From NCBI RefSeq assembly GCF_044324875.1, contig NZ_CP172185.1: a stretch of DNA of 64,000 bases. One strand, written 5' to 3'. Below the pieces are notes generated by a model, which saw nothing but the letters and a program-made list of their open reading frames with translations, had not been told where the DNA came from and made no database searches. How positions within the stretch are numbered: the stretch's first letter is position 1; every line of letters starts with the position of its first letter. The translations under genes and the position numbers were made by a program. Positions 9,584-36,958 of the stretch are shown here, in pieces. Source of the DNA: Escherichia coli. Lineage in GTDB: Bacteria; Pseudomonadota; Gammaproteobacteria; Enterobacterales; Enterobacteriaceae.

Positions 9584-12500
9584 ATGGCAGATAATCCAAA
9601 CCTTTCATCGCCCCTGCCGGACGTGTTTTCACCGGCAACCCGCGACTGGTTTCTTCGCGCCTTTAAACAGCCGACCGCTGTCCAGTCGCAAACCTGGCAT
9701 GTGGCGGCGCGAGGCGAACATGCGCTGGTGATTGCACCGACTGGCTCCGGGAAAACGCTGGCAGCATTTCTCTACGCCCTCGATCAGCTCTTCCGCGAAG
9801 GCGGCGAAGATACCCGCGAGGCGCATAAACGTAAAACCTCACGCATCCTCTATATTTCACCGATCAAAGCTCTGGGCACCGACGTTCAGCGCAACTTGCA
9901 GATCCCGTTACAGGGTATTGCCGATGAACGGCGGCGGCGCGGCGAAACGGAAGTCAATCTTCGCGTGGGGATCCGTACTGGCGATACGCCTGCACAGGAA
10001 CGCAGCAAACTCACCCGTAATCCGCCGGATATTCTGATCACCACACCCGAATCACTCTATCTGATGCTGACCTCCCGCGCGCGCGAAACGCTACGCGGCG
10101 TCGAAACGGTAATTATTGATGAAGTCCACGCGGTAGCGGGCAGTAAACGTGGTGCGCATCTGGCGTTAAGTCTGGAGCGGCTCGATGCGCTGCTCCACAC
10201 CTCAGCACAGCGAATTGGCCTTTCTGCCACTGTACGCTCAGCCAGCGATGTTGCAGCATTTCTTGGTGGCGATCGCCCGGTTACGGTAGTAAACCCGCCC
10301 GCAATGCGCCATCCGCAGATACGGATTGTCGTACCGGTCGCCAATATGGATGATGTCTCATCGGTCGCCAGCGGCACCGGCGAAGACAGCCATGCCGGCC
10401 GAGAAGGCTCCATCTGGCCATATATTGAAACGGGTATCCTTGATGAAGTTTTGCGCCATCGCTCGACCATTGTCTTTACTAATTCACGCGGGCTGGCGGA
10501 AAAACTGACGGCACGATTGAATGAACTTTACGCCGCACGCTTACAGCGTTCCCCGTCTATCGCCGTTGATGCGGTCCATTTCGAGTCGACCTCCGGCGCA
10601 ACCTCTAACCGTGTACAAAATAGCGACATTTTTATTGCCCGCTCACACCACGGCTCCGTCTCTAAAGAACAACGAGCAATCACCGAACAGGCGCTGAAAT
10701 CGGGTGAATTACGCTGCGTGGTCGCAACCTCCAGTCTCGAACTGGGGATTGATATGGGCGCGGTGGATCTGGTGATTCAGGTGGCAACGCCGCTTTCTGT
10801 TGCCAGTGGGTTACAACGCATTGGACGTGCCGGACACCAGGTAGGTGGTATCTCCAAAGGGCTTTTTTTCCCCCGAACCAGGCGTGACTTAGTCGATTCC
10901 GCAGTCATTGTAGAGTGTATGTTCGCAGGCAGGCTGGAAAACCTGACACCGCCGCATAATCCACTCGACGTCCTTGCGCAGCAAACCGTTGCCGCCGCGG
11001 CGATGGATGCATTACAGGTAGACGAATGGTAATCCCGCGTACGCCGTGCCGCACCGTGGAAAGATCTGCCAAGACGTGTTTTTGACGCCACGCTGGATAT
11101 GCTTTCCGGGCGCTATCCCTCTGGCGATTTTTCTGCTTTTCGCCCCAAACTGGTCTGGAACCGGGAGACCGGGATATTGACCGCCCGACCTGGCGCTCAA
11201 TTGTTGGCGGTTACCAGCGGCGGCACCATTCCGGATCGTGGCATGTATAGCGTGTTATTACCCGAAGGTGAAGAACAGGCCGGTTCGCGGCGGGTGGGTG
11301 AACTGGATGAGGAGATGGTATATGAGTCGCGGGTGAACGACATTATCACTCTCGGCGCTACCTCATGGCGGATCCAGCAAATCACCCGCGATCAGGTGAT
11401 TGTGACTCCTGCTCCAGGTCGTTCTGCCCGCCTTCCCTTCTGGCGTGGTGAAGGTAACGGACGTCCGGCAGAATTAGGCGAGATGATCGGCGATTTTCTC
11501 CATTTACTGGCGGATGGCGCGTTCTTTTCCGGGACTATTCCCCCGTGGTTGGCAGAAGAAAATACGATCGCCAATATTCAGGGGTTGATTGACGAGCAGC
11601 GCAACGCGACGGGCATCGTTCCAGGTAGTCGTCATCTGGTCCTCGAACGGTGCCGTGATGAAATTGGTGACTGGCGTATTATTTTGCACTCTCCCTATGG
11701 AAGACGGGTGCATGAACCCTGGGCGCTGGCGATTGCCGGGCGAATACATGCACTATGGGGCGCTGACGCGTCTGTGGTTGCCAGTGATGACGGCATTGTT
11801 GCGCGCATTCCTGACACCGATGGTAAATTGCCTGATGCCGCGATTTTTTTGTTTGAACCAGAAAAGTTGCTGCAAATTGTCCGCGAGGCGGTAGGCAGCT
11901 CGGCACTTTTCGCCGCCCGTTTTCGCGAATGCTCCGCGCGGGCATTATTAATGCCGGGCCGCACGCCGGGCCATCGCACCCCGCTCTGGCAACAACGGCT
12001 GCGCGCCAGTCAGTTGCTGGAAATCGCTCAGGGATATCCGGATTTTCCGGTCATTCTCGAAACACTACGCGAATGTCTGCAAGATGTTTATGATCTTCCC
12101 GCGCTGGAACGTTTGATGCGTCGCCTGAACGGTGGCGAAATTCAAATATCCGATGTAACGACCACTACGCCTTCGCCTTTCGCCGCCAGTTTATTGTTCG
12201 GCTATGTCGCGGAATTTATGTACCAGAGCGACGCCCCGCTGGCAGAGCGCCGGGCATCCGTACTGTCGCTGGACAGCGAGTTACTGCGCAATCTACTCGG
12301 ACAGGTCGATCCGGGGGAATTACTCGACCCGCAGGTCATTCGCCAGGTGGAAGAAGAGTTGCAACGACTGGCTCCTGGCAGAAGAGCGAAAGGTGAAGAA
12401 GGATTGTTCGACCTGCTGCGCGAACTGGGGCCAATGACCGTTGAAGACCTGGCGCAACGACATACAGGCAGCAGTGAAGAGATTGCGTCGTATCTGGAAA

Positions 12501-13284
12501 ATCTTCTTGCAGTAAAACGAATCTTCCCGACCATGATTAGCGGGCAGGAGCGTCTTGCCTGTATGGATGATGCCGCCAGGCTGCGCGATGCTCTCGGCGT
12601 ACGACTACCAGAGTCACTGCCAGAGATTTATTTGCACCGAGTCAGTTACCCGCTTCGCGACCTCTTTCTGCGCTATCTCCGGGCTCATGCTCTGGTCACG
12701 TCTGAACAACTGGCTCATGAGTTTAGTCTCGGTACTGCCATTGTCGAAGAGCAACTTCAGCAACTGCGCGAACAGGGGCTGGTGATGAATCTGCAACAAG
12801 ACATCTGGGTGAGCGATGAAGTATTTCGTCGTCTGCGTTTGCGCTCGCTGCAAGCCGCCAGAGAAGCGACACGTCCCGTTGCGGCCACGACCTATGCGCG
12901 ATTGCTGCTGGAACGTCAGGGCGTATTACCCGCCACCGATGGTAGCCCGGCACTCTTTGCCTCAACATCGCCAGGCGTTTATGAGGGCGTGGATGGCGTG
13001 ATGCGGGTGATCGAACAGCTTGCTGGCGTTGGTTTACCCGCCTCACTCTGGGAAAGCCAGATCCTGCCTGCCCGCGTACGCGACTATTCGCCAGAAATGC
13101 TCGATGAATTACTGGCAACCGGTGCGGTTATCTGGTCGGGGCAAAAAAAGCTGGGTGAAGATGACGGTCTGGTGGCACTGCATCTACAGGAATATGCCGC
13201 AGAATCGTTCACTCCCGCCGAAGCAGATCAGGCGAATCGTTCGGCGCTGCAGCAAGCGATAATCGCTGTTCTGGCTGACGGAGG
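9584..13284 (+). pseudogene. lhr: lhr (large ATP-dependent helicase) 5' portion: in-frame TAA at 11030-11032, then truncated by prophage insertion
   Basis: ORFs 9584..11032 and 11099..13297 are in the same frame, separated by a single TAA; Walker A GSGKT and DEVH helicase motifs; frame runs into the prophage left end and stops at 13295-13297. Confidence 0.85.
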
Positions 13285-13297
13285 TGATCAGACATGA

Positions 13298-13327
13298 GAT
13301 AAATGAAGGGGGATCCGTGAGATAAAT
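13298..13327. repeat. left-end terminal repeats (GAGATAAAT x2), putative transposase binding sites
   Basis: GATAAAT at 13298-13304 and 13321-13327, mirrored at the right end. Confidence 0.4.
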
Positions 13328-13480
13328 AACGAATTGGAGTGGGTTAACATGGGTTCTGGTGAACAGAACTGAAATTCTTTTCCGCTATACGATAGATAAG
13401 TCGGGCATTGAAATCATCCTTCCTGGCAACTTAGAATCGAGTTTGCTGAAACATGACCCGCAACAAAAAGGATGATTCCA

Positions 13481-13642
13481 ATGACTACTCAAAACAATAA
13501 GCATGATAGCCTGGATTACTCAGAAAAGCCCAAAAGCAAGCACATCGTGACGTTCGAGCGCGATTCCGGTAGAAAAGGAGAATCGTCTTCCTCTGCCAAT
13601 AAAACCACTATGCCGGCAGCCCCTGCCCCAGGGAAAAAATAA
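13481..13642 (+). CDS. hypothetical small hydrophilic protein (53 aa); may be spurious
   Basis: ATG with AAGGA 9 bp upstream; low-complexity Ser/Lys-rich product; convergent with the membrane-protein gene (3-bp gap). Confidence 0.25.
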   Translation: MTTQNNKHDSLDYSEKPKSKHIVTFERDSGRKGESSSSANKTTMPAAPAPGKK

Positions 13643-13645
13643 ACA

Positions 13646-14278
13646 TCATTCATCGTTCGTTGCACGAACGCGCCTGATCTCCACTCTGGCAATCTGATCT
13701 GCTGGAATATAGGTTGCCAGAGCTCCCCAGTACTTATCAACCACGCCTTTATACTCTTCCCATTCGTTACTGCCTGAAGGGCTGCTGTGCGTGACGTAAA
13801 GAACCATATCGCCTTTATTCCCCAGGGTAAACGGACCGTTAGGCCACTCTTCAAAGTTCCCTGGCAGCCGTGACATCATACCGGAACCATCGCGAAGAAT
13901 CACTCTGACCTCGGTAACGCTGAAGCCTGTTTGATCAAACATTGCCTGCCATGCTGAGCTGGTATCGTCAGACCATGAAATATCATTATTCCACAGTAAT
14001 CTGTACATCCATTTGCGACCGTACCTGCGCCACCACGCACCGCATGTAACGGCACACAGAAGTGCTGGTGGTGTTGCCAGCCAGGCATTCAGACCTGCCC
14101 ACATAACAGCCTGGTAAGCCATCATTGCTGTCAGGCCAAAAATCAGCGAAGAAAAAGTCACCTCAATGGGCTTGTGGTGATCCTTCAGTCCCACATTCGC
14201 AATAAAATACCCAATATAGCCACTGGTCAGGGTCACCAGTGTTGCCCATGGCAGATTTAACAACGAAACGTCAAACAT
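13646..14278 (-). CDS. prophage accessory membrane protein (about 3 TM helices plus ~120-aa soluble C-terminal domain), function unknown
   Basis: Start at MFDVSLLNL with GGGAGA SD 7 nt upstream; the longer ORF to 14356 would begin inside the terminator hairpin. Confidence 0.6.
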   Translation of the reverse strand: MFDVSLLNLPWATLVTLTSGYIGYFIANVGLKDHHKPIEVTFSSLIFGLTAMMAYQAVMWAGLNAWLATPPALLCAVTCGAWWRRYGRKWMYRLLWNNDISWSDDTSSAWQAMFDQTGFSVTEVRVILRDGSGMMSRLPGNFEEWPNGPFTLGNKGDMVLYVTHSSPSGSNEWEEYKGVVDKYWGALATYIPADQIARVEIRRVRATNDE

Positions 14279-14315
14279 ATTTTCTCCCTGCATCCTGAAT
14301 ACTAAAGAGAGAGCA

Positions 14316-14351
14316 TAAAAAAAGCACGGTAAGGGGTCTACCGTGCTTTTA
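14316..14351. terminator. bidirectional rho-independent terminator between early operon (mor) and left-end accessory gene
   Basis: A-run, 9-bp stem AGCACGGTA / TACCGTGCT with 7-nt loop, T-run. Confidence 0.55.
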
Positions 14352-14392
14352 TACAATAAGGAGATTTTTGAAAGGACTTTAACAAGCAGGAA

Positions 14393-14791
14393 TTATCTGG
14401 ATTTGTTAACGTCTTTCGTCTCCTCTGGCAGATCTTCATCAAACAACCTGCCCTGCATCCGATCCAGTTCTTCTTTTCTGACCCGCTTAACCACGCTGTA
14501 GACCCACTGAAGCGAAACACCAAACTTGCGGGCCAGTTCGTGGTGGTTGCGTCCGTTAAACTCCCTGAAGATTTCCCGGTCGCGCTGACTGACCTTCCAT
14601 ACCATGCCCATCGGGAAATAAACGTTTTGCCCGCCCCAGACCTGCATCATTCGGTTCGCGACGGCCTGACCAATCTGGTCGGCAATTGCGGGCTCAATAT
14701 CAATAATCTCGCGAACGGTCTCAGAGGTATGCTGTGCCAGCTCCACCAGGAGTTCCGGCCCTTTACTTCGAAACTGATTCAGGTCGCTCAT
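14393..14791 (-). CDS. mor: Mor-family middle/late transcription activator
   Basis: 132-aa ORF with the C-terminal segment FREFNGRNHHELARKFGVSLQWVYSVVKRVRK matching Mu Mor. Confidence 0.8.
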   Translation of the reverse strand: MSDLNQFRSKGPELLVELAQHTSETVREIIDIEPAIADQIGQAVANRMMQVWGGQNVYFPMGMVWKVSQRDREIFREFNGRNHHELARKFGVSLQWVYSVVKRVRKEELDRMQGRLFDEDLPEETKDVNKSR

Positions 14792-15254
14792 GTTTTACTC
14801 CCGCAGCTCTGTGCTGCCACTTCTTCAGTTTCTCAATAACACTGCTTGCCTGTTCAGTATTGAGCCAGCGCAGGGCGCTGATGCCCGTTTCCCGCTTGAT
14901 CCACCGCGCTAATGCATTTTCTGAACGGTCACGAACAATGCCGGCAGCAGCCATTTCAAGCCATAGCGCACGGATTTTCCTGGACTGCGGATGGTTATCC
15001 AGCGGTAAACCGGAGCTGGCTTTTCCGGCAGGCTTAACGCGAAAGCCTTTCCTTTTCATGGATTCCAGCACGCAGTTTAGTTGTGTGGTATCCATTCCTT
15101 TGGTTGAGGCTTTACCGGTCAGCCCCTGTAACATCTGGCGATAGGTGTCTTCATCCATACCCAGTTCATTACGGGCAATATGAATGAGCTGGATAAGACG
15201 TTGTTTAGTCATCATCGTTGCTCCTTTTACCTGCGCCACCGATATAATCGACAT
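14763..15254 (-). CDS. GemA/gp16-like protein (DUF1018)
   Basis: 163-aa ORF immediately upstream of mor as in Mu; family recognised from memory. Confidence 0.6.
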   Translation of the reverse strand: MSIISVAQVKGATMMTKQRLIQLIHIARNELGMDEDTYRQMLQGLTGKASTKGMDTTQLNCVLESMKRKGFRVKPAGKASSGLPLDNHPQSRKIRALWLEMAAAGIVRDRSENALARWIKRETGISALRWLNTEQASSVIEKLKKWQHRAAGVKHERPESVSK

Positions 15255-15420
15255 ATAAAGGAAGCGCCACAGGCCAGCACAGGAACATCACCGACCAGCT
15301 AATCCAGTAGCCGGCACCACTGTAACGTGAATAAAACCCTGAACGGCGGTGCAGTTCAGCAGTACACCAACCGACAAAACAATACCAGAACAGGGCACAT
15401 ACAACAGATTCAGCCGTCAT
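15205..15420 (-). CDS. small membrane protein (about 72 aa)
   Basis: ATG overlaps upstream stop (ATGACGGCTGA); G-rich SD; hydrophobic product. Confidence 0.4.
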   Translation of the reverse strand: MTAESVVCALFWYCFVGWCTAELHRRSGFYSRYSGAGYWISWSVMFLCWPVALPLYVDYIGGAGKRSNDDD

Positions 15421-15640
15421 TCTGAATATCCCCCCAACTGATATGAATATTACGGGCAGCAATGACAGGGTCGTTATTCCACCATGCACCTGACATGTAT
15501 TTTTCAACCTGTTCGCGTCCGGCAATAACACCAATTGTGATCCCCGGCCTGACGTTCTTAAAAAAGGCGCGGGCAAAAAGGTATCTGGCAGATATTCGGC
15601 AGGCTTTTAATTTCCGGCTGTTACCTGATAGCGTAATCAT
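15410..15640 (-). CDS. hypothetical early protein (76 aa)
   Basis: ATG with TGGAGG SD; start overlaps stop of upstream gene. Confidence 0.4.
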   Translation of the reverse strand: MITLSGNSRKLKACRISARYLFARAFFKNVRPGITIGVIAGREQVEKYMSGAWWNNDPVIAARNIHISWGDIQNDG

Positions 15641-16320
15641 CTGGCCTCCAGTTTCTGTTGTTCCTGCCCACTGACCGGGCGGTGCAGTCTGACGTTCTGC
15701 CCTTCACGAAACCCCGCATAGCGCGAGGCGTCGCCATTGCGGCTTCTTCCCGGTTTACGCGCCCTGGTGGTTTGCGTCTGCGGGTATTTATGTTCCAGCC
15801 ACTGCTGCATCAGTTCACGCTCATCATCGGTCAGGGCAAAGGACTGTATTTCACTGATAACGGCCAGCACCCAGCCTTCGGCAAACTGGTCTCCACGGCT
15901 GGTGCGGGTGGCGGTTTTTATTCTTTTGTTCTGTGCACTGATATACTGCTGACGCGCCTTTTTCAGCTGACGGGCCAGCACTTCCCAGGTGTATGCAGCC
16001 AGTGCCGCACGTTCCCGGTTGCCGTAGAACCCCACAGACGGATGCGTGCCGGGGTGAATGATGGAGTTAACACCAAATACCTCGCGGATGATGTTCATCA
16101 GGCCTGGCATGTAGCGCGGTGGACGGAGACTGCCTGTCGGCCAGTAGTGACTGATGGTTTCATCAATATCACTCATAGCAATGTCGGAATGTGTGATGCC
16201 GTGAACATCCATCAGTTTACGGGCTCGGCGCAGTGCCAGAGCGGCCTCGTGCGGGTTGCCGGATGCGGCCAGCGCCAGCAACTTTTTCAGTTTCTCAATG
16301 TGTTTATTCTGGTCTGTCAT
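15637..16320 (-). CDS. early protein with DUF2786-like N-terminus (IEKLKKLLALAASGNPHEAALALRRARKLM)
   Basis: Start at MTDQNK with GGAG upstream, overlapping upstream stop (ATGA); family assignment tentative. Confidence 0.5.
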   Translation of the reverse strand: MTDQNKHIEKLKKLLALAASGNPHEAALALRRARKLMDVHGITHSDIAMSDIDETISHYWPTGSLRPPRYMPGLMNIIREVFGVNSIIHPGTHPSVGFYGNRERAALAAYTWEVLARQLKKARQQYISAQNKRIKTATRTSRGDQFAEGWVLAVISEIQSFALTDDERELMQQWLEHKYPQTQTTRARKPGRSRNGDASRYAGFREGQNVRLHRPVSGQEQQKLEAR

Positions 16321-16532
16321 TGTTCTGTATCTCCGGTATTTTTCTGCCGTTTCCATGCCCGGACAGCGTCGGACAGCTCTTTCAGGCTGTATGCTGCTTT
16401 AAGCTTTTCCCATAACCACTGTGTTGTTATGTGCATCAGCAGGGCAGCCAGGGCTGCCCCCGCACTGAGGCATGTCGCCAGGCCAGTAAGAATCAGTATC
16501 CATGCGGTGATTTCCCTGAGTATGTCAGCCAT
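16317..16532 (-). CDS. small membrane protein (71 aa)
   Basis: Hydrophobic core ILILTGLATCLSAGAALAALL; translationally coupled to downstream gene. Confidence 0.45.
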   Translation of the reverse strand: MADILREITAWILILTGLATCLSAGAALAALLMHITTQWLWEKLKAAYSLKELSDAVRAWKRQKNTGDTEQ

Positions 16533-16546
16533 TGAATGCCTCCCGG

Positions 16547-16843
16547 TTACTCGTTCGTGTAAATCACGCCCAGTCGTGCAGCCAGACGTTCCAGTTTTTT
16601 CTGTTTGTGGAAGTCAATCAGCCGGTCCATCCCCTGAAGGCGCAATTGCTCTGTCATGATTTCCACGTCTGCCAGCTCTGCCGCGAGGTCGCTTTCGCTG
16701 CCCTGTCCGTTCAGATTGCGGGCAGCACTGGCCGCCAGTTCAGCGGCCTCTTCTGTCAGTTTCAGGGCCTGTGCGTCCGGCCCGAAACGCTGCAGGGCCA
16801 GACGGTAGAGGGCGGTGCGGGTGAGTATGGTGTTCCGTGTCAT
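16547..16843 (-). CDS. hypothetical early protein (98 aa)
   Basis: ORF in co-directional tight array of early genes. Confidence 0.45.
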   Translation of the reverse strand: MTRNTILTRTALYRLALQRFGPDAQALKLTEEAAELAASAARNLNGQGSESDLAAELADVEIMTEQLRLQGMDRLIDFHKQKKLERLAARLGVIYTNE

Positions 16844-16852
16844 GCCGCGCCC

Positions 16853-17125
16853 TCAGTGCTTCCGGCTGACGGTGATGTGCAGGCCGCCTTCTGCAGTGGT
16901 TTCCATCCGGTACGGCACCTCATGCTCTGCCGTGTGGGTGAGTGTGTTCATCAGTACCTGCAGGGCAGCCGCCTTTCCGTTGGTTGCCACAATGGCCTGT
17001 GTGGTCATGCTGATTAGCGCCGTCAGGACGTGCTTCACATCGGTGAGGTCGCGGCATTCACACTCGTTGACATAGTGTTCAACAAGGGTTCGGGTGCGCT
17101 GTCGTGCTTCCTGTGGGGTAATCAT
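16853..17125 (-). CDS. hypothetical early protein (90 aa)
   Basis: ORF in early gene array; stop overlaps next start. Confidence 0.45.
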   Translation of the reverse strand: MITPQEARQRTRTLVEHYVNECECRDLTDVKHVLTALISMTTQAIVATNGKAAALQVLMNTLTHTAEHEVPYRMETTAEGGLHITVSRKH

Positions 17126-17316
17126 TGCGAGTCCTCCCTGTCAGGGCGGGAGAATTCCATGACGGGCACGTCTGCCGAAAAATGCTGGCTGCAGTACGGG
17201 CAGACCAGGGTGACGCGTACCGCAGGGATGTGGTATTTACCGGACATCACGGCGATGGCGCTGTGAAAACGCAGGGCTGTTATATCCCTCTCGCACTGAA
17301 TACATTTAAATATCAT
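17122..17316 (-). CDS. small zinc-ribbon protein (CxxC...CxxC)
   Basis: 64-aa ORF with CIQC and CPYC pairs. Confidence 0.45.
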   Translation of the reverse strand: MIFKCIQCERDITALRFHSAIAVMSGKYHIPAVRVTLVCPYCSQHFSADVPVMEFSRPDREDSQ

Positions 17317-17413
17317 GATTTAATTCTCCTCTGTTTCCGGCGTGCAGAAGCCCGCGGCGCTGACGCCGGAATAAAAAAGAAAATGTTTTTATTAAATAAT
17401 TAACGTGGTGTGT

Positions 17414-17944
17414 TTACTGCACATCCTGCTCAAAAGGAATTATTGAAAAATCCTCAATGTCGCTTTTAATGGAAATACCGGGAATATTTTTCACGGCCTC
17501 TTTTTCATTCAGGATAGCGTCTTTATTTATTTCCTCTTTTACACGAATAAAGCGCTCAAGCCCCAGACGTCTCAGTAATTCAATAACATTATCCGCCCCA
17601 CGGATACTGACTGATGGCGGACGGTTTCGCCACTGCACCTCGCCGGTGGTAAGGTTAGCGAACTTCACCTTCCCGTTGCCGGTCAGTTCATCACGGTGCG
17701 CCTCACACCATGTCTGGATACCGGACTGCAGTTCGGCCATGCGTTTTTTCAGGCTCTCGGTGAGCGGGGCATAACGTGCGGTGATATCGCCAATGGCGTC
17801 ATTCATTTCTGTTTCAGCCCTGACCAGTTCACGTTGTGCGTCACCGAGTAGTCTGATTCCCTCAATGACCTCTTCGCGTGTCCCTGGTACCCAGAGTGCC
17901 GCTGCGGCCTTGATACGTTTTGCCCCTTTTGTACTTTTTGCCAT
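17414..17944 (-). CDS. gam: Gam-like host-nuclease inhibitor (Mu Gam family)
   Basis: 176-aa ORF aligns along its length with recalled Mu Gam (TEMNDAI, WCEA.RDELT, RPPSVSIRG, GLERFIR, EDFSIIPFEQ). Confidence 0.85.
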   Translation of the reverse strand: MAKSTKGAKRIKAAAALWVPGTREEVIEGIRLLGDAQRELVRAETEMNDAIGDITARYAPLTESLKKRMAELQSGIQTWCEAHRDELTGNGKVKFANLTTGEVQWRNRPPSVSIRGADNVIELLRRLGLERFIRVKEEINKDAILNEKEAVKNIPGISIKSDIEDFSIIPFEQDVQ

Positions 17945-17971
17945 ATTTTATGATTTCTCCGGTTGTGCTGA

Positions 17972-18241
17972 TTACCACAAAGATTCCGGCCACACGACGC
18001 GACAGCCGTGCAGTTCGAAAACGCCCTGACGGAAATATCCCCTGTGGTCATGTCCGGTATACAGATAACAGGCCTTTCCCTGCTCAAGCATGCGCATGCA
18101 ATGCGCACTCCGGGAAACGCGGATGACAGGTTTGTTACCCCTGATGGTGATGCTTTGTACATCCGTGTTCGTCGCCTTAAGCGCCATAATGGCTGACTGC
18201 ACTTTGCTGATTTGCTGGTTGATACCTGTGGTGGATTTCAT
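17972..18241 (-). CDS. hypothetical early protein at the kil position (89 aa)
   Basis: Sits between MuB-like and gam-like genes, where kil lies in Mu; no sequence assignment. Confidence 0.4.
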   Translation of the reverse strand: MKSTTGINQQISKVQSAIMALKATNTDVQSITIRGNKPVIRVSRSAHCMRMLEQGKACYLYTGHDHRGYFRQGVFELHGCRVVWPESLW

Positions 18242-18243
18242 TA

Positions 18244-19410
18244 TTAAACTCCTTTGACAACGTCAGCGTTGACCTGTGGAACCCCGATTTCAGCGGCCAG
18301 ATTCATGGCGGCTATTACCAGGTTACTGACGGCCAGCGGATACAGCAGGCTGACCATATTTTTACGATGACTTCCCGGATTGCTCAGGCGGGCACGTATG
18401 GCATCCACTGCGCTGGCGTCCATAATGTCCGTCAGTTGTTTACCGGCCCGTTGCAGTTTGAACGTCAGAAATTCTTCAAGGTTATTGTCCAGAGGCAGAA
18501 GTTCGACCACCTCACAGCGCTGAACGACTTCACGGACTTCCATATTGCGTTCAGACAGTTTTGTCGCCAGTTCCGGCTGGCCAATCAGCACGATGGACAG
18601 CAGTTTTTTGAAACCGGACTCCAGCTCAAAAAAGCGTTTGAGGTGTTTCAGTGTCGGAATGGGCAGACTGTGGGCCTCCTCAATCACCAGAACGTGGCTG
18701 AACCCCGCCTGGCTGCTGTCTTTCAGGACGCGATGCAACTGGCGAAAGCGGGCGTCCTGACTGCGTCTGATGCTTTCCAGTGGTGCGATGGTACTGATAA
18801 TGGCTTCGGCAATAGCTGCTGCCTTCAGGGTTTTCCCTTTCACATCGTTGTCTTCCATAGCGATGATGTATGGCTCGATAACAATTACCGGCGCATTCTC
18901 GCGGTTAATACGTTCAGTCAGGTCGCGGCGCAGCGTGGATTTACCCGCACCGGACTCACCGATGACGGCCATAAACCCACCATGACGGGCTGTCTGGTAC
19001 AGCGCCTCACGCACGTAGCGAATGTCCGGGGTGGTGAACACATCATCAGAACCCTGCATGGCTTCATCGGCGAACGGGTCACGGAAAAGACCAAACGCTT
19101 TTTTGGTTGCTGGAAATAACACCTGTTTTTTGAGTAACATATTCTCTTCCTCACTGAGGCTCGTTTTATCTGTGGTACCCGCTGTACGGGGCGTGGCCGC
19201 GCCCTGTACAGCATCAAAACTCTTCGTTGTATCAATCCCCTGACTTTCCAGCCAGGACGCAAGACGCCGGCGCACTTCTCCGGGGCTGGTGCGGGGCCAC
19301 GCGTTATGATTCACAATCTGGGCCAGCGTGGCCTCAGAAACATCGACAGCTCTCGCCGCCACCGCCTGTGGAATACGGGCCTCTTTCAGTTGCTGCTTCA
19401 GTACCAGCAT
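18244..19410 (-). CDS. MuB-like transposition ATPase (AAA+)
   Basis: Walker A GESGAGKST; ATG at 19408-19410 preceded by GAGGAGGG SD; directly downstream of transposase. Confidence 0.75.
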   Translation of the reverse strand: MLVLKQQLKEARIPQAVAARAVDVSEATLAQIVNHNAWPRTSPGEVRRRLASWLESQGIDTTKSFDAVQGAATPRTAGTTDKTSLSEEENMLLKKQVLFPATKKAFGLFRDPFADEAMQGSDDVFTTPDIRYVREALYQTARHGGFMAVIGESGAGKSTLRRDLTERINRENAPVIVIEPYIIAMEDNDVKGKTLKAAAIAEAIISTIAPLESIRRSQDARFRQLHRVLKDSSQAGFSHVLVIEEAHSLPIPTLKHLKRFFELESGFKKLLSIVLIGQPELATKLSERNMEVREVVQRCEVVELLPLDNNLEEFLTFKLQRAGKQLTDIMDASAVDAIRARLSNPGSHRKNMVSLLYPLAVSNLVIAAMNLAAEIGVPQVNADVVKGV

Positions 19411-19420
19411 GTTTCCCTCC

Positions 19421-21190
19421 TCAGTTGCCGTTAACAATGCTGATAACGCTGCTGCGGGCCGGCGTGGTCAGCGTGGCCATGACTTCATCCAGTGCGGCTT
19501 CCGGTACGCCGTCCGGGTACTGTGCTGTTAACTGGCGGTAATGTTCCGGCGTCCAGGTCAGGCCGTCGGCGCTGAACTTATCGCGCAGGGCTTTCGCGGC
19601 CTCCACATGAGTCATGGGACGCTGTTCAGTGCGCGGTCCGCGTACGTCAGAGGCCTGACCACGCTTCGGTATACAGGCCGGAAGTGTGGCGTCATCAATA
19701 TGTTTATACGGGTCAAGCCGCCCGCCGAACGGCAGCGCCTTCGCCTTGCGTGCGGCAGCTGCATCTGCGGCGTTGTCTGTACCGGTGACCAGCGCTTCGG
19801 TTTCTTTTGCCGCCATCTGCGCCGGGGTTTCCGGCAGGGCTTTGTAACTTTCGCCAAATACCGCCGCGCCTTCAGCAAAGCCAAACTCGTTCTTTCTGAC
19901 CTCTTCGACCAGGAAGAACGTCTCGTGGCCGTCCTCACCGGTCAGAACCACCTGTGCCACATCGCTGCGCCACGGGTTACGGGTAATCATCAGTTTTTCA
20001 CCGACCAGTACGCCCGGTACCGTTGATACGTCAAATTCAGTGCCCCGGAACGAGACACGAAGTTTTGGCGTGACTTTGCGGAGTTCTGGTGCCGCCACAG
20101 CCAGTTCACGACATACCTCAACGGAAGGCGCTTTTTTCAGCTGCTCAGCAGTAATCTTCAGCCAGATATCCGTGCGGGTTTTACCGTGGCGGCTGTGAAC
20201 AGCCGTGGCGTTAAAGTGGCTGCGCCATTTCGCGGCCAGCGCGTTGAGTTCTTCCAGACTGTGAACCGGCCGGAACTTCAGACCCGGCTCCAGCTTGCGT
20301 TCGATAATGTCACGCGCCTTTTCCACCTGTCCGGTGGCGCGGGCGTTATGCGGCTTGTGCGCTATCAGGTCGATGCCCAGTGAGCGGCACATGTTTTTCG
20401 TCATACCCGCGGTGTTTGCCGAGCCGGGGTCGAGATAGAGTATTTTTGGCACGCCGTGCAGCACGTCTGCGCCGCCACGCTCCTGCATGGCGTTGATAAG
20501 CACAGAACACAGGTTCTCACCGGATTCCGCACCCGTCACATACTCAACGTAAATCCAGCCGCTGGCATGGTCGGTAATCTCGTAACTCCACACGCGGTCA
20601 CTGGCGATACGGGCAAGGTTAGCGGGCTTGTTTTTGTAGAATTTCGCGCTGTCCATCACCTGCAGCCCTTTATGTCCATTGCTCAGGTAGTAAAGCGTGC
20701 AGAGTGAGGCGTCAATCTGCCAGACATGATTGGGGTGCAGACTGGCCACTTCGGTATGCGGTGCAGGGGCATCCAGTTGTTCCGGGTGCAGGCCATAGTT
20801 ACGCAGGGCACGACTGATGGCATCTTCGGACAACGGGAAAAACTCACCGGTGGTTTCATCTGTTCTGCCTGCGGAGATAAAGCCGTTAGCCCGCAGGGTT
20901 TCCACTGCATCCGCGATGGAATAGAGACGCTTACCGTTCTTGCGGGTGGCCTCACGTAGTGTGGCAGATATCAGCGCGGCTTCGTCGCGGGTCAGGGTGC
21001 TGCGTCCGGCATCGGCGCGTTTTTTGCGTTTATCAGTCACAGAGACCTCCTTCAGCCTGCGCAGCAGAGTGGCGCGGGACATGCCAAGTTCAGCACAGGC
21101 AGCGTCGTATATTGCACCGCGTTTACCATGCCCCGCATTACGTGCCGCGCGGGCTGTTTCAACAAGTTTTTCAGTCAGTGCCGGGGTCAT
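19421..21190 (-). CDS. DDE transposase (Mu A-like function, rve-type catalytic core with N-terminal HTH)
   Basis: 589-aa ORF; HTH RATLLRRLKEV; HVWQIDASLC core; position upstream of MuB-like gene. Confidence 0.8.
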   Translation of the reverse strand: MTPALTEKLVETARAARNAGHGKRGAIYDAACAELGMSRATLLRRLKEVSVTDKRKKRADAGRSTLTRDEAALISATLREATRKNGKRLYSIADAVETLRANGFISAGRTDETTGEFFPLSEDAISRALRNYGLHPEQLDAPAPHTEVASLHPNHVWQIDASLCTLYYLSNGHKGLQVMDSAKFYKNKPANLARIASDRVWSYEITDHASGWIYVEYVTGAESGENLCSVLINAMQERGGADVLHGVPKILYLDPGSANTAGMTKNMCRSLGIDLIAHKPHNARATGQVEKARDIIERKLEPGLKFRPVHSLEELNALAAKWRSHFNATAVHSRHGKTRTDIWLKITAEQLKKAPSVEVCRELAVAAPELRKVTPKLRVSFRGTEFDVSTVPGVLVGEKLMITRNPWRSDVAQVVLTGEDGHETFFLVEEVRKNEFGFAEGAAVFGESYKALPETPAQMAAKETEALVTGTDNAADAAAARKAKALPFGGRLDPYKHIDDATLPACIPKRGQASDVRGPRTEQRPMTHVEAAKALRDKFSADGLTWTPEHYRQLTAQYPDGVPEAALDEVMATLTTPARSSVISIVNGN

Positions 21191-21205
21191 AGCTTGTCTT
21201 CCCTG

Positions 21206-21523
21206 TTATCCGATTCTGGCGGCAATTTTTCTGGCACGGTCGCGCAGGGTTTCGCCATCGCAGGTTTTCACCACGTTATTTACCGGTTGCGGCGCAACTG
21301 CCGGGCGCAATGCTGACTGATGCTGCAGACGTCTTATCTGCTGCATCAGCATCACTTCCATCGTCAGTACAAACGGATGCGCCTCCTGTGCGGGTACGCA
21401 GATTTCACCGGAAGGTGTCACCACGCGGAAACCCTGCACCATCTCCGGCAGCAGATTACACAGTGCGTGCCCCAGTGCCTCCGGGCTGTCCATCAGGATA
21501 TTTTGTGTGTTATCCGTGTTCAT
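21206..21523 (-). CDS. hypothetical early protein (105 aa)
   Basis: ORF between ner-like and transposase genes. Confidence 0.4.
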   Translation of the reverse strand: MNTDNTQNILMDSPEALGHALCNLLPEMVQGFRVVTPSGEICVPAQEAHPFVLTMEVMLMQQIRRLQHQSALRPAVAPQPVNNVVKTCDGETLRDRARKIAARIG

Positions 21524-22440
21524 TACTGCATGCCCTCCGGTCGGTTGATTTCAGGCTCCGGTTCGGTCAGCCATGCGGGGACATCGTTACCCGATGGTGC
21601 GGCATCAAGGTCGAACGTCTCACGCAATGCATGAACACTGCGTTCAATCTGGCAGACCAGACCGGCCATGAAATCTCTGGGGGTATCAATCATGTTTTTA
21701 CTGCAGTATTCACACAGGGTTTCAAAGGCACCGGAGAGCCGGACGGCGATGGCAGATTCCGCCTCAACCGCTAATGCGGTCACTTCCGCCCGCAGCTTCT
21801 TCACCTCTTCATCAGGCTCAGGCGGTTGAATACGGGATTTCTTCTCCAGTTTTGTGGCCAGTTCGTTGATTTTTTCGTCCTTTCCGGCAAGCACCTGTTG
21901 CTGAGCTGCGTTAGTTTCGCGCGCTTCACGCAGGGCCTGGCGAAGTTCACGTACTGACATGCGATCAACATCATCAAGCGTCAGGCCGGCAACTGTGCCG
22001 CCGTCGGCCAGTTCGGCAAGGTCTTCATCGTCTTCAGCAACAAGTTCAAATAATTTTGCCTTACCCAAAAGCGACAACGTTGTCGCTTTTGGCTCTAGTT
22101 TTGGTGAAAGGTATTTCAAAGATGCTTTCATCATTCGTTGTGCTGCGCGCACGTGCAAACCAAGTTGTTCTTCTACAATTCCAACAAAGTCCCCGTGTGG
22201 CTCATTTTCTTTTAAGATGATCAGCCGTTTACCCGCTTCCAGCATAGATTCAGCACTCTGCGCCATATAAAAACGTGCTTCGTGAACGATGCGATCACGT
22301 TCATAAGGCAGTCCATCACCAAACTGCTGCATGATCTCCATGCGATGCTGTGTCATGGCATTCAGGCTGACGTTGAGATCATCCGACAGCGGTACCTCGG
22401 CGTTCAGTTCAGTGTTAACCGGTGATTTGGTGCGTCCCAT
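21523..22440 (-). CDS. hypothetical early protein (305 aa, acidic coiled-coil region)
   Basis: ORF between ner-like and transposase genes; no confident family assignment. Confidence 0.45.
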   Translation of the reverse strand: MGRTKSPVNTELNAEVPLSDDLNVSLNAMTQHRMEIMQQFGDGLPYERDRIVHEARFYMAQSAESMLEAGKRLIILKENEPHGDFVGIVEEQLGLHVRAAQRMMKASLKYLSPKLEPKATTLSLLGKAKLFELVAEDDEDLAELADGGTVAGLTLDDVDRMSVRELRQALREARETNAAQQQVLAGKDEKINELATKLEKKSRIQPPEPDEEVKKLRAEVTALAVEAESAIAVRLSGAFETLCEYCSKNMIDTPRDFMAGLVCQIERSVHALRETFDLDAAPSGNDVPAWLTEPEPEINRPEGMQ

Positions 22441-22450
22441 TGATTACTCC

Positions 22451-22759
22451 TTACAAACGACTACCTGAAATGACACGTTGGTTGATTTCGTTAATGCGAT
22501 CCTGTGCACGTGCCATCTCGTTACTGTGGGCCATGGCGATCTGCAGCAACTGGATGCCCGGTGCGAAACGCCCGTTTTCCAGTTTCAGGGCCAGTCCTTC
22601 TTCAATGAGGGTGTTGAGTGCCCGGTTGATGTTTGCCGGTGACTCGTGCAGTGCTGCCGCCAGTTCACCATTGGAAATACCGTTCAGGGCATGACCGCGC
22701 AGCGCTTTGAGTACCCGGAGGATGCGACTGCCGGAGCTTGAAACATTCGTCTTACTCAT
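22451..22759 (-). CDS. winged-helix DNA-binding protein (about 102 aa)
   Basis: HTH-like segment ILRVLKALRGHALNGISNGELAAAL; start at MSKT has the better SD spacing. Confidence 0.45.
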   Translation of the reverse strand: MSKTNVSSSGSRILRVLKALRGHALNGISNGELAAALHESPANINRALNTLIEEGLALKLENGRFAPGIQLLQIAMAHSNEMARAQDRINEINQRVISGSRL

Positions 22760-22811
22760 CTGCATACCTCTTTTGCGATATGTGATAACCTTTTACAAAG
22801 AATCAAAATAT

Positions 22812-23000
22812 TCAGGCTGCCTGAGCTGTTGATTTCAGCCCCAGTTTCACGGCGATTTCATGGGATTTACCGTAACGTGCTTTGCTCTGCCCATTGAGAA
22901 CGCGGTATACCTCATTGCGGTTGTAGCCGTTTTCTTCTGCCCAGCGGGTGAAAGTGATCCCGCGCTGGCGGAAGAGAGCTTTGACTTGTTCTGCAGTCAT
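22812..23000 (-). CDS. ner: Ner-like small DNA-binding protein (Cro-equivalent)
   Basis: 62-aa ORF with AAGGAGA SD, divergent from the repressor; Ner-like HTH pattern. Confidence 0.55.
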   Translation of the reverse strand: MTAEQVKALFRQRGITFTRWAEENGYNRNEVYRVLNGQSKARYGKSHEIAVKLGLKSTAQAA

Positions 23001-23100
23001 CGTTGTCTCCTTTGTTGATGCAATGATGTTTGCCTTATGTGTGATAGATTATGGTGCAGATTATCTCACCAGTCAACTTAAAGAGTGCAGAAAAACTCAC
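23001..23100. promoter_or_regulatory. divergent early control region between ner and repressor (candidate operators)
   Basis: 100-bp AT-rich spacer containing the direct repeat AGATTAT twice (GATAGATTATGGTGCAGATTATCTC). Confidence 0.35.
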
Positions 23101-23439
23101 ATGATCGGGTTACGTATTAAAGAAGAAAGAGAGCGTCTATCTCTTACACAGCAAGGGTTGGCTGATGCTATCGGTGTGGCAAAGAGAACTTTTATTGATT
23201 GGGAAAAAGATCGCACTTCTCCTACTGCAGTGCAGTTATCTGCACTATCAGAAATCGGTGTAGATGTTTTGTATGTAGTTACTGGGGTGCGGAGTCAGCC
23301 TGTTGTTGCACCTTATATGTCACAAGAAAAGAAAGAGTTAATGGATGCATTCGACGAGATGAGCCCCGAACAACGGAGGGCAATTCTTGAGGTCGGCAAA
23401 GTCTTCATTCAACCCAAACCAAGCAAACTCGCAGGCTGA
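23101..23439 (+). CDS. XRE-family HTH repressor (c-like)
   Basis: Internal start MIGLRIKEERERLSLTQQGLADAIGVAKRTFIDWEKDRTSP, a classic XRE HTH; divergent from ner. Confidence 0.6.
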   Translation: MIGLRIKEERERLSLTQQGLADAIGVAKRTFIDWEKDRTSPTAVQLSALSEIGVDVLYVVTGVRSQPVVAPYMSQEKKELMDAFDEMSPEQRRAILEVGKVFIQPKPSKLAG

Positions 23440-23525
23440 TTCTGACCTGGACAGAAAGGACAGGTGGTTGATCTGGATGCTTTCAGAAAACGCCGTCAGT
23501 AGCATGGCAGAAATCGGCGGGCTTA

Positions 23526-23548
23526 CCGGAAAGCACTGTACTTTCCGG
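23526..23548. terminator. bidirectional terminator between convergent repressor and dam genes
   Basis: Stem CCGGAAA / TTTCCGG with 9-nt loop followed by T-rich tract. Confidence 0.5.
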
Positions 23549-23557
23549 TTATGGCTT

Positions 23558-24322
23558 TTAGAAATTGCAGATCACCAGCTCACGGCGTGGAGTTGATTTG
23601 CCTGCCAGACTGTAGTTGATGTTCACTGTCTGTATGTTCAGTCCAGTGAACACCTCGCGCATCTGCGGGATGTCGTTCACCGAAATTATCATCTTTCCTC
23701 TGATGCACCGGGCCAGCTCTGCCAGCCGCGAGTAGTTCCCTTCAGGAAAATCCACACCATAGCCTTCTGTACCCAGATACGGCGGGTCACAGTAGAACAG
23801 CGTGTGCGGACGGTCATAGCGCTCAATGCACTGTTGCCAGTCCATGTGTTCTATCACCGTTCTGGAAAGCCGCAGGTGTGCCGCTGACAGTTCTTCCTCG
23901 ATACGCAGCAGGTTGAAGCGTGGCGGGGATGTGGTGGAGGTGCCGAAGCTGTGCTCTGCCACCTTGCCGCCAAACGCCTGCTTCTGGAGGTAGTAGAACC
24001 GTGCTGCACGCTGGATATCCGTCAGTGTTTCTGTCGGGGTGATCTGCAGCCATTTGTAGATCTGCCGGCTGACCAGCGCCCATTTGAACTGGCGGACAAA
24101 TTCTTCCAGATGATGTTTTACCACCCGATACAGATTTACCAGTTCACCATTGATATCGTTAATGACTTCGAGCTTACCAGGTGTCTTAAGAAAATAGAGC
24201 GCTGCTGCGCCGCAGAACGGCTCCACGTAACATTCATGCGCCGGAAACAGCGGCAGGATGTGTTTTGCCAGGCGACGTTTGCCACCAATCCATGGAACGA
24301 TGGGTAATGTCTGCATTTTCAT
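23558..24322 (-). CDS. Dam-type N6-adenine DNA methyltransferase (D12 class)
   Basis: 254-aa ORF with DPPY catalytic motif and N-terminal FCGAAALYF SAM-binding motif. Confidence 0.8.
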   Translation of the reverse strand: MKMQTLPIVPWIGGKRRLAKHILPLFPAHECYVEPFCGAAALYFLKTPGKLEVINDINGELVNLYRVVKHHLEEFVRQFKWALVSRQIYKWLQITPTETLTDIQRAARFYYLQKQAFGGKVAEHSFGTSTTSPPRFNLLRIEEELSAAHLRLSRTVIEHMDWQQCIERYDRPHTLFYCDPPYLGTEGYGVDFPEGNYSRLAELARCIRGKMIISVNDIPQMREVFTGLNIQTVNINYSLAGKSTPRRELVICNF

Positions 24323-24514
24323 AATCTGTAAGCCTTTTACAATTATTAAAAATATGGCAGGCTAGTCTGGTCTCGCGAGACTGACTGAACCCCGGTCGGC
24401 TCACAGCGCATTCCTGTGGGACGATGGCCAGCCCGGTGGGTCCGAAGCACCGGGCTGGTCGTTCTTTCATGATGCGGCAGGGATGAAGTGATTTCTGTTA
24501 ATGTGGTTTAGGGA

Positions 24515-24730
24515 TTATCCGGGGCGATTTTCTGACCTTATCTGGTCCAGGGCATAAGTGATCCCTTCTGCAAAAACAGAAGTATCAAACTGCTTTTGTA
24601 TTTCCTGAAAATGAACAGTGGCACGACAGACACTCAGTTCTCCGCGATGTAACCGGATAATATCTTCCAGAACATTGTTCACTGCTTCGGCACGGCGCTG
24701 ATGTTCTGTTAACGTTAATCGGGGATTCAT
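24515..24730 (-). CDS. hypothetical 71-aa protein upstream of dam
   Basis: ATG with AAGGAG SD 8 nt upstream; no recognisable motif. Confidence 0.5.
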   Translation of the reverse strand: MNPRLTLTEHQRRAEAVNNVLEDIIRLHRGELSVCRATVHFQEIQKQFDTSVFAEGITYALDQIRSENRPG

Positions 24731-25107
24731 GATGCACTCCTTAAATGATGATTTTTATGTACTCACCGGCAAAATATTCTGCCGATTACTGAACACGCAT
24801 CCGGCTCCTCAGGTTTTGATTTATTCTGGTTTTTTCGATATCCCGGACCAGGTTGATCACGACAGAAAAAGTGCCGGTATTTTATTGATACGCTGATATG
24901 GCTTCGGGATAACAGCTATATTCGTTACTCTCAGTTGCTGGCTGTGGGAGCGGCTGATGTCGTCCTCACGGAAAAAACGCTCTGTCTGCTCAATGCCATG
25001 CCGACCTTTCTGCAGCCCCGGCCCGTACCATTTAAAGAGTCACTTCTGGATGCAGTAAAAACCGGTGAAAATGCAGTCATCGCTGAATGCGTATCCCGGA
25101 TTATGCG

Positions 25108-25656
25108 TTACGTGTTTAATGAACGTAAGTGAGGTTTATCCGCTGTCTGCATAATCCCGATAGCCAGTGCGAGGGGAAGCAATTCCGGGGAAACTCTTTC
25201 AAACAGCGATTCCCATTCTCCTCTCGCCATCACTCTGTCCAGCCCGCCCTCCAGCTGCATTTCAGCAATCTTCCTGATTTCCCGGAACAACGCCGCTTTG
25301 ATCTCTTCATGCTCAGCTTTATTTTCCGGTGTCAGAATGTATTCGTCGAAGAACCGGGGAGGCTGGTTAACGGGGGGCATGTTCACCGGGATGTGTTCCT
25401 GTATCCCGTACTCCGGGGCTGAAAAACATTTTGTTGTCTGACCGGTGAGTTTGCGTAACACCTTCATGAGTTGCTCCTGAAGCAGCTCATTCGTCCGACA
25501 GATACGCTCGTCGTCCACAACTGCGGCATCGACAATGACGCTTTTTCCAAATTCCTTTTTCACCATCTCTTTTATACGCGTCAGAACGTAACTTTTACCG
25601 CTGCCTACAGGCCCGGACACTCTGACGGTGATGGTCGGCTTCGGTGTGACTGTCAT
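25108..25656 (-). CDS. small P-loop NTPase (about 182 aa), function unknown
   Basis: Start MTVTPKPT with AAGGAG SD; Walker A GPVGSGKS and hhhhDD Walker B-like VIVDAAVVDDE. Confidence 0.6.
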   Translation of the reverse strand: MTVTPKPTITVRVSGPVGSGKSYVLTRIKEMVKKEFGKSVIVDAAVVDDERICRTNELLQEQLMKVLRKLTGQTTKCFSAPEYGIQEHIPVNMPPVNQPPRFFDEYILTPENKAEHEEIKAALFREIRKIAEMQLEGGLDRVMARGEWESLFERVSPELLPLALAIGIMQTADKPHLRSLNT

Positions 25657-25725
25657 TCTGTATCTCCTTTGTGAGTGATCCAGCGTGTATTCTGCATACC
25701 CCGAACACGCCTCTCTCTTAACGCG

Positions 25726-25736
25726 CTTTAAAATCC
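25726..25736 (+). promoter_or_regulatory. late-promoter-like motif GCTTTAAAATC about 60 bp upstream of first late gene
   Basis: One of four related motifs at matching distances from late-operon starts. Confidence 0.35.
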
Positions 25737-25787
25737 TCCGCGCCACGCTTTTGCCATGCTGTCTCCACACAACAAGGAGACATTTTC

Positions 25788-26138
25788 ATGAAACCATTCA
25801 CTTCCCTTATCGTTGACGTACAAAAAACCCGCCTGCGTGGATGGCTTGTTGCGGCCGTGCTGCTGCTCCTCATCATCGCGCTGGTCTCACCCCAGCAGTT
25901 GCCGGTGGTGGTGTACAAGCTCTCTCTCATCTCCCTCGCCGCCGTGCTCGGCTACTGGCTGGACCGCTCACTCTTCCCGAAGGCCCGTCCGGGGCAGTAC
26001 CTGAAGCATGACGAGCGCCTCATGGCTGAGGGGCGCTGGCCCGTACAGACCGGCCTTCACCTGGTGTTTTCTGCTGCGTTAATCCGCCGTGCACTGATTG
26101 TTGCAGCTGTCTGTCTGGCTGTTGCGATGGGGCTTTAA
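25788..26138 (+). CDS. putative holin / lysis membrane protein
   Basis: 116-aa ORF with two or three TM segments immediately upstream of the endolysin. Confidence 0.5.
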   Translation: MKPFTSLIVDVQKTRLRGWLVAAVLLLLIIALVSPQQLPVVVYKLSLISLAAVLGYWLDRSLFPKARPGQYLKHDERLMAEGRWPVQTGLHLVFSAALIRRALIVAAVCLAVAMGL

Positions 26139-26140
26139 TC

Positions 26141-26875
26141 ATGAACTGGCCACAGAGCACCTGGATTGTATGCATGTCCCTGAAACTGGCTTTCGAAGCC
26201 TTTCTGGTCTTCATCAGAACCGAACGCCTGTCAGTCCGTGTCGGGACCTTTCTGGTTCATATGGCATGGGTATTCTTTGTCGCAATGTTGCTCTGGTGTG
26301 GCGGCTTCTTCAGTCAGGCCCGCGCAGCGCAGCCTCCGCAGGCTGCGCTGCAGTATCGCGATGATGTGATCCGTAATGCCCGGCTTGAATGGGGGCTGTC
26401 TGCGCCGGTGGCCGATTTCGCCGCGCAACTGCATCAGGAAAGCGGCTGGCGGACTGATGCGGTCTCGCCGGTGGGCGCTCAGGGGCTGGCGCAGTTTATG
26501 CCCGCCACCGCTGACTGGATAAGCCAGTTGATGCCGGCGTTGAGCAGTCGTGAGCCGTTTAATCCGGCATGGGCCATCCGGGCGCTGGTCAGCTATGACC
26601 GCTGGCTGTGGCAGCGCATCAGCGCCGCCAGTGACTGCGAGCGTATGGCCATGACACTGTCGGGCTATAACGGTGGTCTGGGTTGGGTACAACGGGACAG
26701 GCGGCTCGCATCACAGAAAGGTCTGGACAGCACCCGCTGGTTCGGACATGTCGCCACGGTGAATGCCGGACGCAATGCTGCCAGCTGGCGGGAGAACCGC
26801 CATTATCCGCAGCGCATCCTGCACGAACTGGCCCCCCGTTATCTGACATGGGGGGGCGGCAGCTGTGTGGACTAA
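26141..26875 (+). CDS. lytic transglycosylase endolysin (SLT domain), probable signal-anchor (SAR) type
   Basis: SLT catalytic region HQESGWR...GAQGLAQFMPATA; hydrophobic N-terminal segment. Confidence 0.75.
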   Translation: MNWPQSTWIVCMSLKLAFEAFLVFIRTERLSVRVGTFLVHMAWVFFVAMLLWCGGFFSQARAAQPPQAALQYRDDVIRNARLEWGLSAPVADFAAQLHQESGWRTDAVSPVGAQGLAQFMPATADWISQLMPALSSREPFNPAWAIRALVSYDRWLWQRISAASDCERMAMTLSGYNGGLGWVQRDRRLASQKGLDSTRWFGHVATVNAGRNAASWRENRHYPQRILHELAPRYLTWGGGSCVD

Positions 26876-27167
26876 CCTGCTAAAAAATCTGCCGTGGCGC
26901 AGTCTGCTGCTGGCAGTGCTCATAAATGCTTTTCTGATTGGACTTTATTACCTGGGCTACAAAAGTGCAAAATGGCATCTGAATCGATCGCAGTTTGGCA
27001 TTCGAATCGATCATGATTTGGCATCCATCTCCGATCACAGTTTGGCATCACAATCGATCACGATTTGGCATGCTTCCGATCATTGATTGGCATCCTGCCA
27101 GTCACTCCGGGAATTAACTCTTTTCACCACAGTCTCCATTGCCGTGTTTAAACCAGTGGAGACGTCA

Positions 27168-28733: not shown

Positions 28734-28749
28734 CAGAAGGAACAACAGT

Positions 28750-30123: not shown

Positions 30124-30157
30124 ACGCGTTGCTGGATGAACGGGAAGGATTACAGAA

Positions 30158-35158: not shown

Positions 35159-35160
35159 CA

Positions 35161-35619: not shown

Positions 35620-35769
35620 GTTTTCTCTCTTCAGGCGGGTGATTTATCATTGCCAGCGAATGAGGGGCTGTATTACCTTTATAAAGGCTTTACAGCCTCT
35701 GTTTTATAACTGCCTCCGGTTCACCACATTGCTTTCCCTGTCCTTCTCCCCTGATGTTTTCTAAAGCAG

Positions 35770-36949: not shown

Positions 36950-36958
36950 GGAGAAAGC

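Follow-up and report, generated by a model that had tools for sequence, protein, structure and literature searches.

The lhr gene in the window, by which we mean the whole 64,000-nucleotide stretch of Escherichia coli DNA that was analysed, carries two separate lesions, an in-frame TAA at codon 483 and a 40,369-bp Mu-like prophage at codon 1234. Comparison with intact and with prophage-bearing relatives indicates that the stop most probably arose as a recent C-to-A nonsense mutation at Tyr483, in a sublineage in which lhr was already split by the prophage. The stop is an ordinary secondary nonsense mutation, part of the decay of a disrupted and dispensable gene, and calls for no new biology.

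Direct reading of the sequence shows TAA at positions 11030-11032, in frame within lhr. The open reading frames 9584..11032 and 11099..13297 lie in one frame, offset by 1515 nt or 505 codons. Translation from 9584 gives a sole stop, in the context ...LQVDEW-stop-SRVRRAAPWKDL..., with Lhr sequence on either side, and reaches the end of the frame at 13297. Among complete alleles the lhr of E. coli GN25 (NZ_CP139196.1) is the closest; it occupies the usual locus, nemR-nemA-gloA-rnt-lhr-grxD. Nucleotides 1-3701 of GN25 lhr correspond to window 9584-13284 (3,701 bp), and nucleotides 3695-4617 to 53653-54575 (923 bp). The two alleles differ at exactly one of the 4,617 bp of the gene, with A in the window versus C in GN25 at 11032, a C-to-A transversion that converts codon 483 from TAC (Tyr) to TAA. 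An in-frame stop that replaces a sense codon of an intact orthologue and is followed by homology in the same frame, here with the other 4,616 nt identical to GN25 lhr, is the mark of a nonsense pseudogene. A sequence-only reading had taken the TAA to be a nonsense mutation within lhr and not a gene boundary, had held that the gene was inactivated twice, and had proposed finding the ancestral codon by alignment of lhr orthologues. Single-frame translation and the GN25 alignment bear out the first of these claims, the stop and the prophage are the two lesions of the second, and the alignment gives TAC, Tyr, for the third. Two antisense ORFs (10777..11091 and 11012..11200, minus strand) were set aside as genes; they lie wholly inside lhr coding DNA that is identical to GN25, where RefSeq annotates lhr only.

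The approximately 1.1 kb around the stop matches lhr, annotated as 'ATP-dependent helicase', in 4,382 complete E. coli genomes, at best with 99.9% identity; none of these 4,382 genomes is identical to the window over this segment. The flanks of lhr differ from GN25 by 0.17-0.66%, and because of this divergence GN25 is, as far as sequence can tell, no clone-mate of the window strain, yet its lhr allele is the same. At window position 842, in the intergenic sequence just after slyB, the window has one A fewer than GN25, and Logan assemblies are identical to the window there.

Pfam analysis of the intact GN25 protein identified DEAD (residues 31-218), Helicase_C (349-417), WH_Lhr (446-616), DEAD_assoc (679-867), WH2 (912-1016), WH3 (1130-1206) and WH4 (1334-1416), and the protein matched the Mycobacterium smegmatis Lhr structures 7LHL (E = 0) and 5V9X over its full length. 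In the window, the 5' fragment of the gene (9584..11029, plus strand; codons 1-482, equal to GN25 lhr nt 1-1446) encodes DEAD/RecA1, Helicase_C/RecA2 and the first ~37 residues of WH_Lhr. Its 482-aa product lists the same two families, DEAD and Helicase_C, that make up the SF2 core of Lhr proteins. The premature stop (11030..11032, plus strand) stands in place of TAC for Tyr483, the codon found both in GN25 and in the prophage-bearing assembly SRR21142071, its derived base being the A at 11032. The middle fragment (11033..13284, plus strand; codons 484-1234), now untranslated, contains the rest of WH_Lhr including W620, DEAD_assoc, WH2 and WH3, so that the coding sequence for WH_Lhr and DEAD_assoc, which complete the ~877-aa Core, is present but lies 3' of the stop. 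The 3' fragment (53660..54575, plus strand; codons 1235-1538 and the native stop) encodes WH4 and the following modules, the beta-barrel and D1536, and is 100% identical to GN25. The prophage interrupts, at codon 1234, the large C-terminal tandem-WH domain that further characterises the family. Both W620 and D1536 are encoded in the window allele.

A base-calling or assembly error at the stop would mean a true C at 11032 and an lhr with the prophage as its sole lesion. Consistent with such an error, the change involves a single base, and a 61-bp stop-centred query carrying the TAA allele had no exact match in the 4,366 complete E. coli genomes that contain this stretch (5,426 searched). However, the exact 482-aa product was found on three Logan contigs, SRR31073000, SRR31072984 and ERR14764776, and over 21.0, 22.2 and 11.2 kb, respectively, these contigs match the window at 100% identity. 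The three sets of reads, two SRR and one ERR, thus yield the same base directly, and the same TAA assemblies share with the window a second derived base, at 6387, that is linked to the stop. The site also lies outside any homopolymer (context GAATGGTAATCCCGC). The agreement of three read sets that were assembled separately from the window makes an error very unlikely; identical or closely related isolates may have been sequenced repeatedly in these runs, and the window may derive from one of them. Since the TAA allele is absent from all 4,366 complete genomes with this stretch, it is, on the sequences compared, private to a small sublineage. The ERR14764776 contig ends 204 bp past the TAA (at window position 11236), well before the prophage junction.

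The second lesion is a transposable Mu-like prophage of 40,369 bp (13285..53653) with TG...CA ends, whose limits coincide with the limits of matches in other E. coli genomes. Comparison of its flanks with GN25 lhr revealed a 6-bp duplication of lhr sequence, CGGAGG (lhr nt 3696-3701), with the left copy of the target-site duplication (TSD) at 13279..13284 and the right copy at 53654..53659. The left junction reads ...GACGGAGG followed directly by TGATCAG..., and the insertion splits codon 1234 such that the upstream frame continues ...ADGG-DQT-stop. The same lhr::prophage junction was found in none of the complete E. coli genomes. Near-identical copies of the prophage with the same start and end (13285 and 53653) are present elsewhere in E. 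coli, in unrelated genes such as those for phosphopentomutase, php, paaJ, gspL and yjjI. The TG...CA ends, the 6-bp TSD, an rve transposase with an AAA_22 partner and the many insertion sites together identify the element as a Mu-like prophage.

The early operon of the prophage, assigned by Pfam domains, is on the minus strand and comprises Mor, nearest the left end, GemA, Gam, an AAA+ B-like protein (AAA_22; 18244-19437) and the rve transposase (19421-21190), a protein of 589 aa with the rve core only. Also on the minus strand is a D12-class N6-adenine DNA methyltransferase (23558-24322). The plus strand carries a repressor-like HTH gene (22948-23439), an SLT lysin, head and tail genes and, at the right end, a Gin-like serine invertase (52874-53575). 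A plus-strand tail-fibre gene (50080-51798) precedes minus-strand ORFs for tail fibre and tail-fibre assembly (51805-52901) that adjoin the invertase, and the segment 51805-53575 looks like an invertible host-range segment, now in one orientation. One SRR21141407 contig, together with four similar ones, has an extra A in the invertase at window position 53376, giving a resolvase ORF of 148 aa versus 190 aa; this extra A is absent from the window and from SRR21142071. Between the lysin and lipoprotein genes of the prophage sits an IS21-family element (~26960-29600) with IstA-like (27087-28733; rve and Mu-transpos_C_2) and IstB-like (28507-29505) genes and multiple ~20-nt terminal repeats. The nearest sequenced phages, Escherichia phage PhiKM and Klebsiella phage KP12, share 84-94% identity with the prophage over part of the genome, and have ~850 bp at the IS21 site versus ~3.5 kb in the window. 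Canonical Mu was considered and rejected, in that the transposase has the rve core only and Mor is the gene nearest to the left end in an early operon that faces this end. TG...CA termini and an Rve-core transposase are characteristic of BcepMu-related Mu-like prophages (PMC2628397), and we tentatively assign the element to the BcepMu type.

Because the TAA allele and the lhr::prophage junction are both absent from complete genomes, the order of the two lesions was established from read-set assemblies and contigs. The products expected of each allele were constructed and then looked up by exact sequence. The 1237-aa product that retains Tyr483 and ends at the junction (...ADGGDQT-stop) is present on 6-7 contigs in NCBI and Logan. 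One prophage-bearing TAC sample, SRR21142071, was compared with the window base by base. It combines TAC with the same junction, and over 30,375 bp (23,297 + 7,078) only two positions, 6387 and 11032, set it apart from the window; the second contig, which spans the right junction, is identical to the window over its 7,078 bp. At both variable positions SRR21142071 has the base of the outgroup GN25, and the TAA assemblies have that of the window.

These comparisons of assembled sequence show that the ancestral allele is TAC, that a lineage with TAC and the prophage exists, and that the TAA sublineage is nested within it. The stop is younger than the prophage insertion because close relatives with the identical junction retain TAC. 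The reverse order, in which the prophage entered a gene already killed by the nonsense mutation, would give the same final sequence, and insertion of Mu-like elements is near-random as to target. Against it stand the 6-7 contigs that combine the identical junction with Tyr483, and the outgroup state of the nearly identical SRR21142071 at both variable sites. It would further require either that TAA reverted exactly to TAC or that the prophage inserted twice at the identical site. The 1033-aa product expected of TAA without the prophage is not on record, a weak negative since the look-up needs the exact sequence and the same start codon. We therefore regard the reverse order as highly improbable, and the parsimonious history as one that leads from an intact lhr through prophage insertion to a C-to-A change at codon 483 in a subclone. 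The sequence-only reading had called the stop independent of the prophage. In physical terms this is correct, for the junction lies 2.25 kb downstream of the stop; in historical terms it is not, as the stop arose on a prophage-bearing background. The same reading had offered relaxed selection or a sequencing error as the cause. The former is supported by a stop that postdates the disruption, with TAC in relatives that have the same junction; the latter is contradicted by the three read-set assemblies.

Residues 1-877 of EcoLhr form a monomeric Core that has ATPase and translocase activity in vitro; Trp620 is needed there to couple ATP hydrolysis with translocation, and it is the C-terminal domain that makes the protein oligomerise (PMC8053096). 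The uracil-DNA glycosylase (UDG) activity of EcoLhr depends on its active-site aspartate, which was tested as the D1536A mutant, and strains lacking lhr are viable, with conditional phenotypes only, namely mild sensitivity to AZT and marked sensitivity to peroxide (PMC10953399). Prophage insertion alone leaves the frame of the 877-aa helicase core open. It would have removed residues 1235-1538, which include the glycosylase residue D1536 and part of the oligomerisation domain. The stop, and not the prophage, appears to be the lesion that abolishes the helicase, with most of WH_Lhr, W620 and DEAD_assoc lost. A stub that lacks both W620 and D1536 is predicted to have lost the ATPase, 3'-5' translocase and uracil-DNA glycosylase activities, and the window strain is probably a natural lhr null.

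These predictions would fail if the stop were bypassed, by a suppressor tRNA, by programmed read-through or by a functional split into two polypeptides, and Lhr function were kept. Nothing specific speaks for such a bypass beyond a downstream frame that is still open as far as the prophage junction. The TAA is conserved in no relative (0 of 4,366 complete genomes), and the window, prophage included, contains no tRNA gene, which disposes of a suppressor tRNA carried by the prophage. Re-initiation at the first downstream in-frame ATG (11099) was likewise rejected, since no Shine-Dalgarno-like sequence is present there and the product would be without any helicase motif. Even with read-through, translation would go no further than the prophage junction. 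Truncated N-terminal fragments of Lhr that are on record are of scattered length, 195-622 aa, and share no conserved split point. Neither the conservation of the stop nor the decoding tRNA that would mark programmed recoding or a conserved split gene was found, and the probability that Lhr function is kept in this way is close to negligible.

Loss of lhr is not rare in the species. While 4,382 of the 5,425 complete E. coli genomes with any match keep at least 80% of lhr, the remaining 1,043 (~19%) do not. Two of the 1,043 were inspected: JCM 5491 has a 229-bp lhr remnant between rnt and grxD, annotated as a partial pseudogene, and HH45 has two short lhr end fragments of ~105 and 123 nt in the rnt-grxD interval, annotated as partial pseudogenes. 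Because about 19% of complete genomes are without at least 80% of the gene, lhr is, to judge from its distribution, dispensable in E. coli in nature. At 90% identity, 1,052 N-terminal fragments of Lhr, scattered in length, fall into one cluster; some of these are contig-end partials. Other split lhr alleles were found in public assemblies through a shared 281-aa C-terminal ORF (L010-L014, L017 and L018). One of them, L010, has a clean GGA-to-TGA change at codon 1234; most of the others have 1-bp deletions in an A7 (nt 3554-3560) or a T7 (near nt 1280) tract, with both deletions in L017 and L018. We did not accept these alleles as proof of recurrent decay, as homopolymer sites may be slippage hot spots or sequencing artefacts.

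We propose that a Mu-like prophage transposed at random and split lhr at codon 1234. The resulting loss of residues 1235-1538, with oligomerisation modules and the uracil-glycosylase site, would have left little or no selection on the remaining frame. A random nonsense mutation may then have drifted to fixation in a subclone, drift being possible because the insertion relaxed constraint on the rest of the frame. The outcome would be a 482-aa stub of two RecA-like domains, with helicase function lost too. By computation, ~3.4% of the possible substitutions in lhr nt 1-3701 give a stop, and 6.5% of those that are G:C-to-T:A; in a gene no longer fully constrained, a nonsense mutation is thus unremarkable. 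Neutral drift would here be inseparable from selection for a full null. The core frame survived the prophage insertion, and that the gene was already non-functional is therefore something that we infer.

An alternative is that the second hit was adaptive. A 1237-aa deregulated core helicase, or transcription from rnt-lhr into the left end of the prophage, may have been costly, and an early stop, with Rho-dependent polarity, would then have been selected. In keeping with this, the 877-aa core remains open after the prophage insertion, and by itself it acts as a monomeric ATPase and translocase (PMC8053096). Furthermore, only 3.4% of the possible substitutions are nonsense, yet a nonsense mutation is one of the two SNPs in 30 kb. 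This last argument is post hoc, as the site was flagged for being a stop, and it concerns a single event (n = 1). In addition, at least seven assemblies retain the 1237-aa frame, indicating that it is tolerated. We consider selection for the stop unlikely.

Still less probable, in our estimate, is that the stop is a footprint of the first lesion, the loss of glycosylase activity having raised the rate of G:C-to-T:A changes; a related reading is the selection, considered above, for silencing a deregulated monomeric core helicase. Both differences between SRR21142071 and the window are G:C-to-T:A, namely 6387 G-to-T (synonymous, in ydhL, minus strand) and 11032 C-to-A, although two changes are too few for a spectrum. 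If the stop were such a footprint, lhr would have helped to cause its own second hit, via the lost C-terminal uracil/oxidised-cytosine glycosylase.

We favour secondary decay after the prophage insertion, and this has consequences for annotation and for the strain. Annotation should treat the gene as a single pseudogene that bears two lesions, and not as two or three helicase genes. By analogy with the published phenotypes of lhr deletion, the window strain would be expected to be mildly sensitive to AZT and sensitive to peroxide. The A at 11032 together with the T at 6387 provides a clean marker of a sublineage within the lhr::prophage clone. The case is also a small worked example of how two lesions in one gene can be ordered by means of public read-set assemblies. 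Many E. coli strains are without lhr, and a gene once disrupted can be expected to gather further mutations.

The prophage resembles those of the BcepMu type in its TG...CA ends, rve-core transposase, AAA+ B-like protein, Gam, GemA, Mor and short TSD, a likeness judged by Pfam domains (Mor, GemA, Phage_Mu_Gam and rve) and by DNA similarity to PhiKM and KP12. In contrast to these relatives, the copy in the window has an additional IS21-family element. The disrupted gene has the same locus, nemRA-gloA-rnt-lhr-grxD, and the same domain set as E. coli Lhr, a DNA-repair helicase of 1538 aa named large helicase-related protein (rnt-lhr locus). Unlike the intact gene, it has become a pseudogene whose three pieces span codons 1-482, 484-1234 and 1235-1538. 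Natural deletions of lhr, for example that of JCM 5491, are likewise a natural route to an lhr null. However, deletion is old and widespread, whereas the window allele is recent, private and two-step, with nearly all of its sequence retained. In multi-hit pseudogenes, secondary mutations accumulate after a first inactivating insertion. The lhr of the window follows the same course, with insertion of a mobile element first and an upstream nonsense mutation in the same frame later, the order being given by relatives that have the first hit only. It differs from the usual multi-hit pseudogene in that the catalytic helicase core was still open after a first hit near the C-terminal end, so that the second hit was not strictly redundant.
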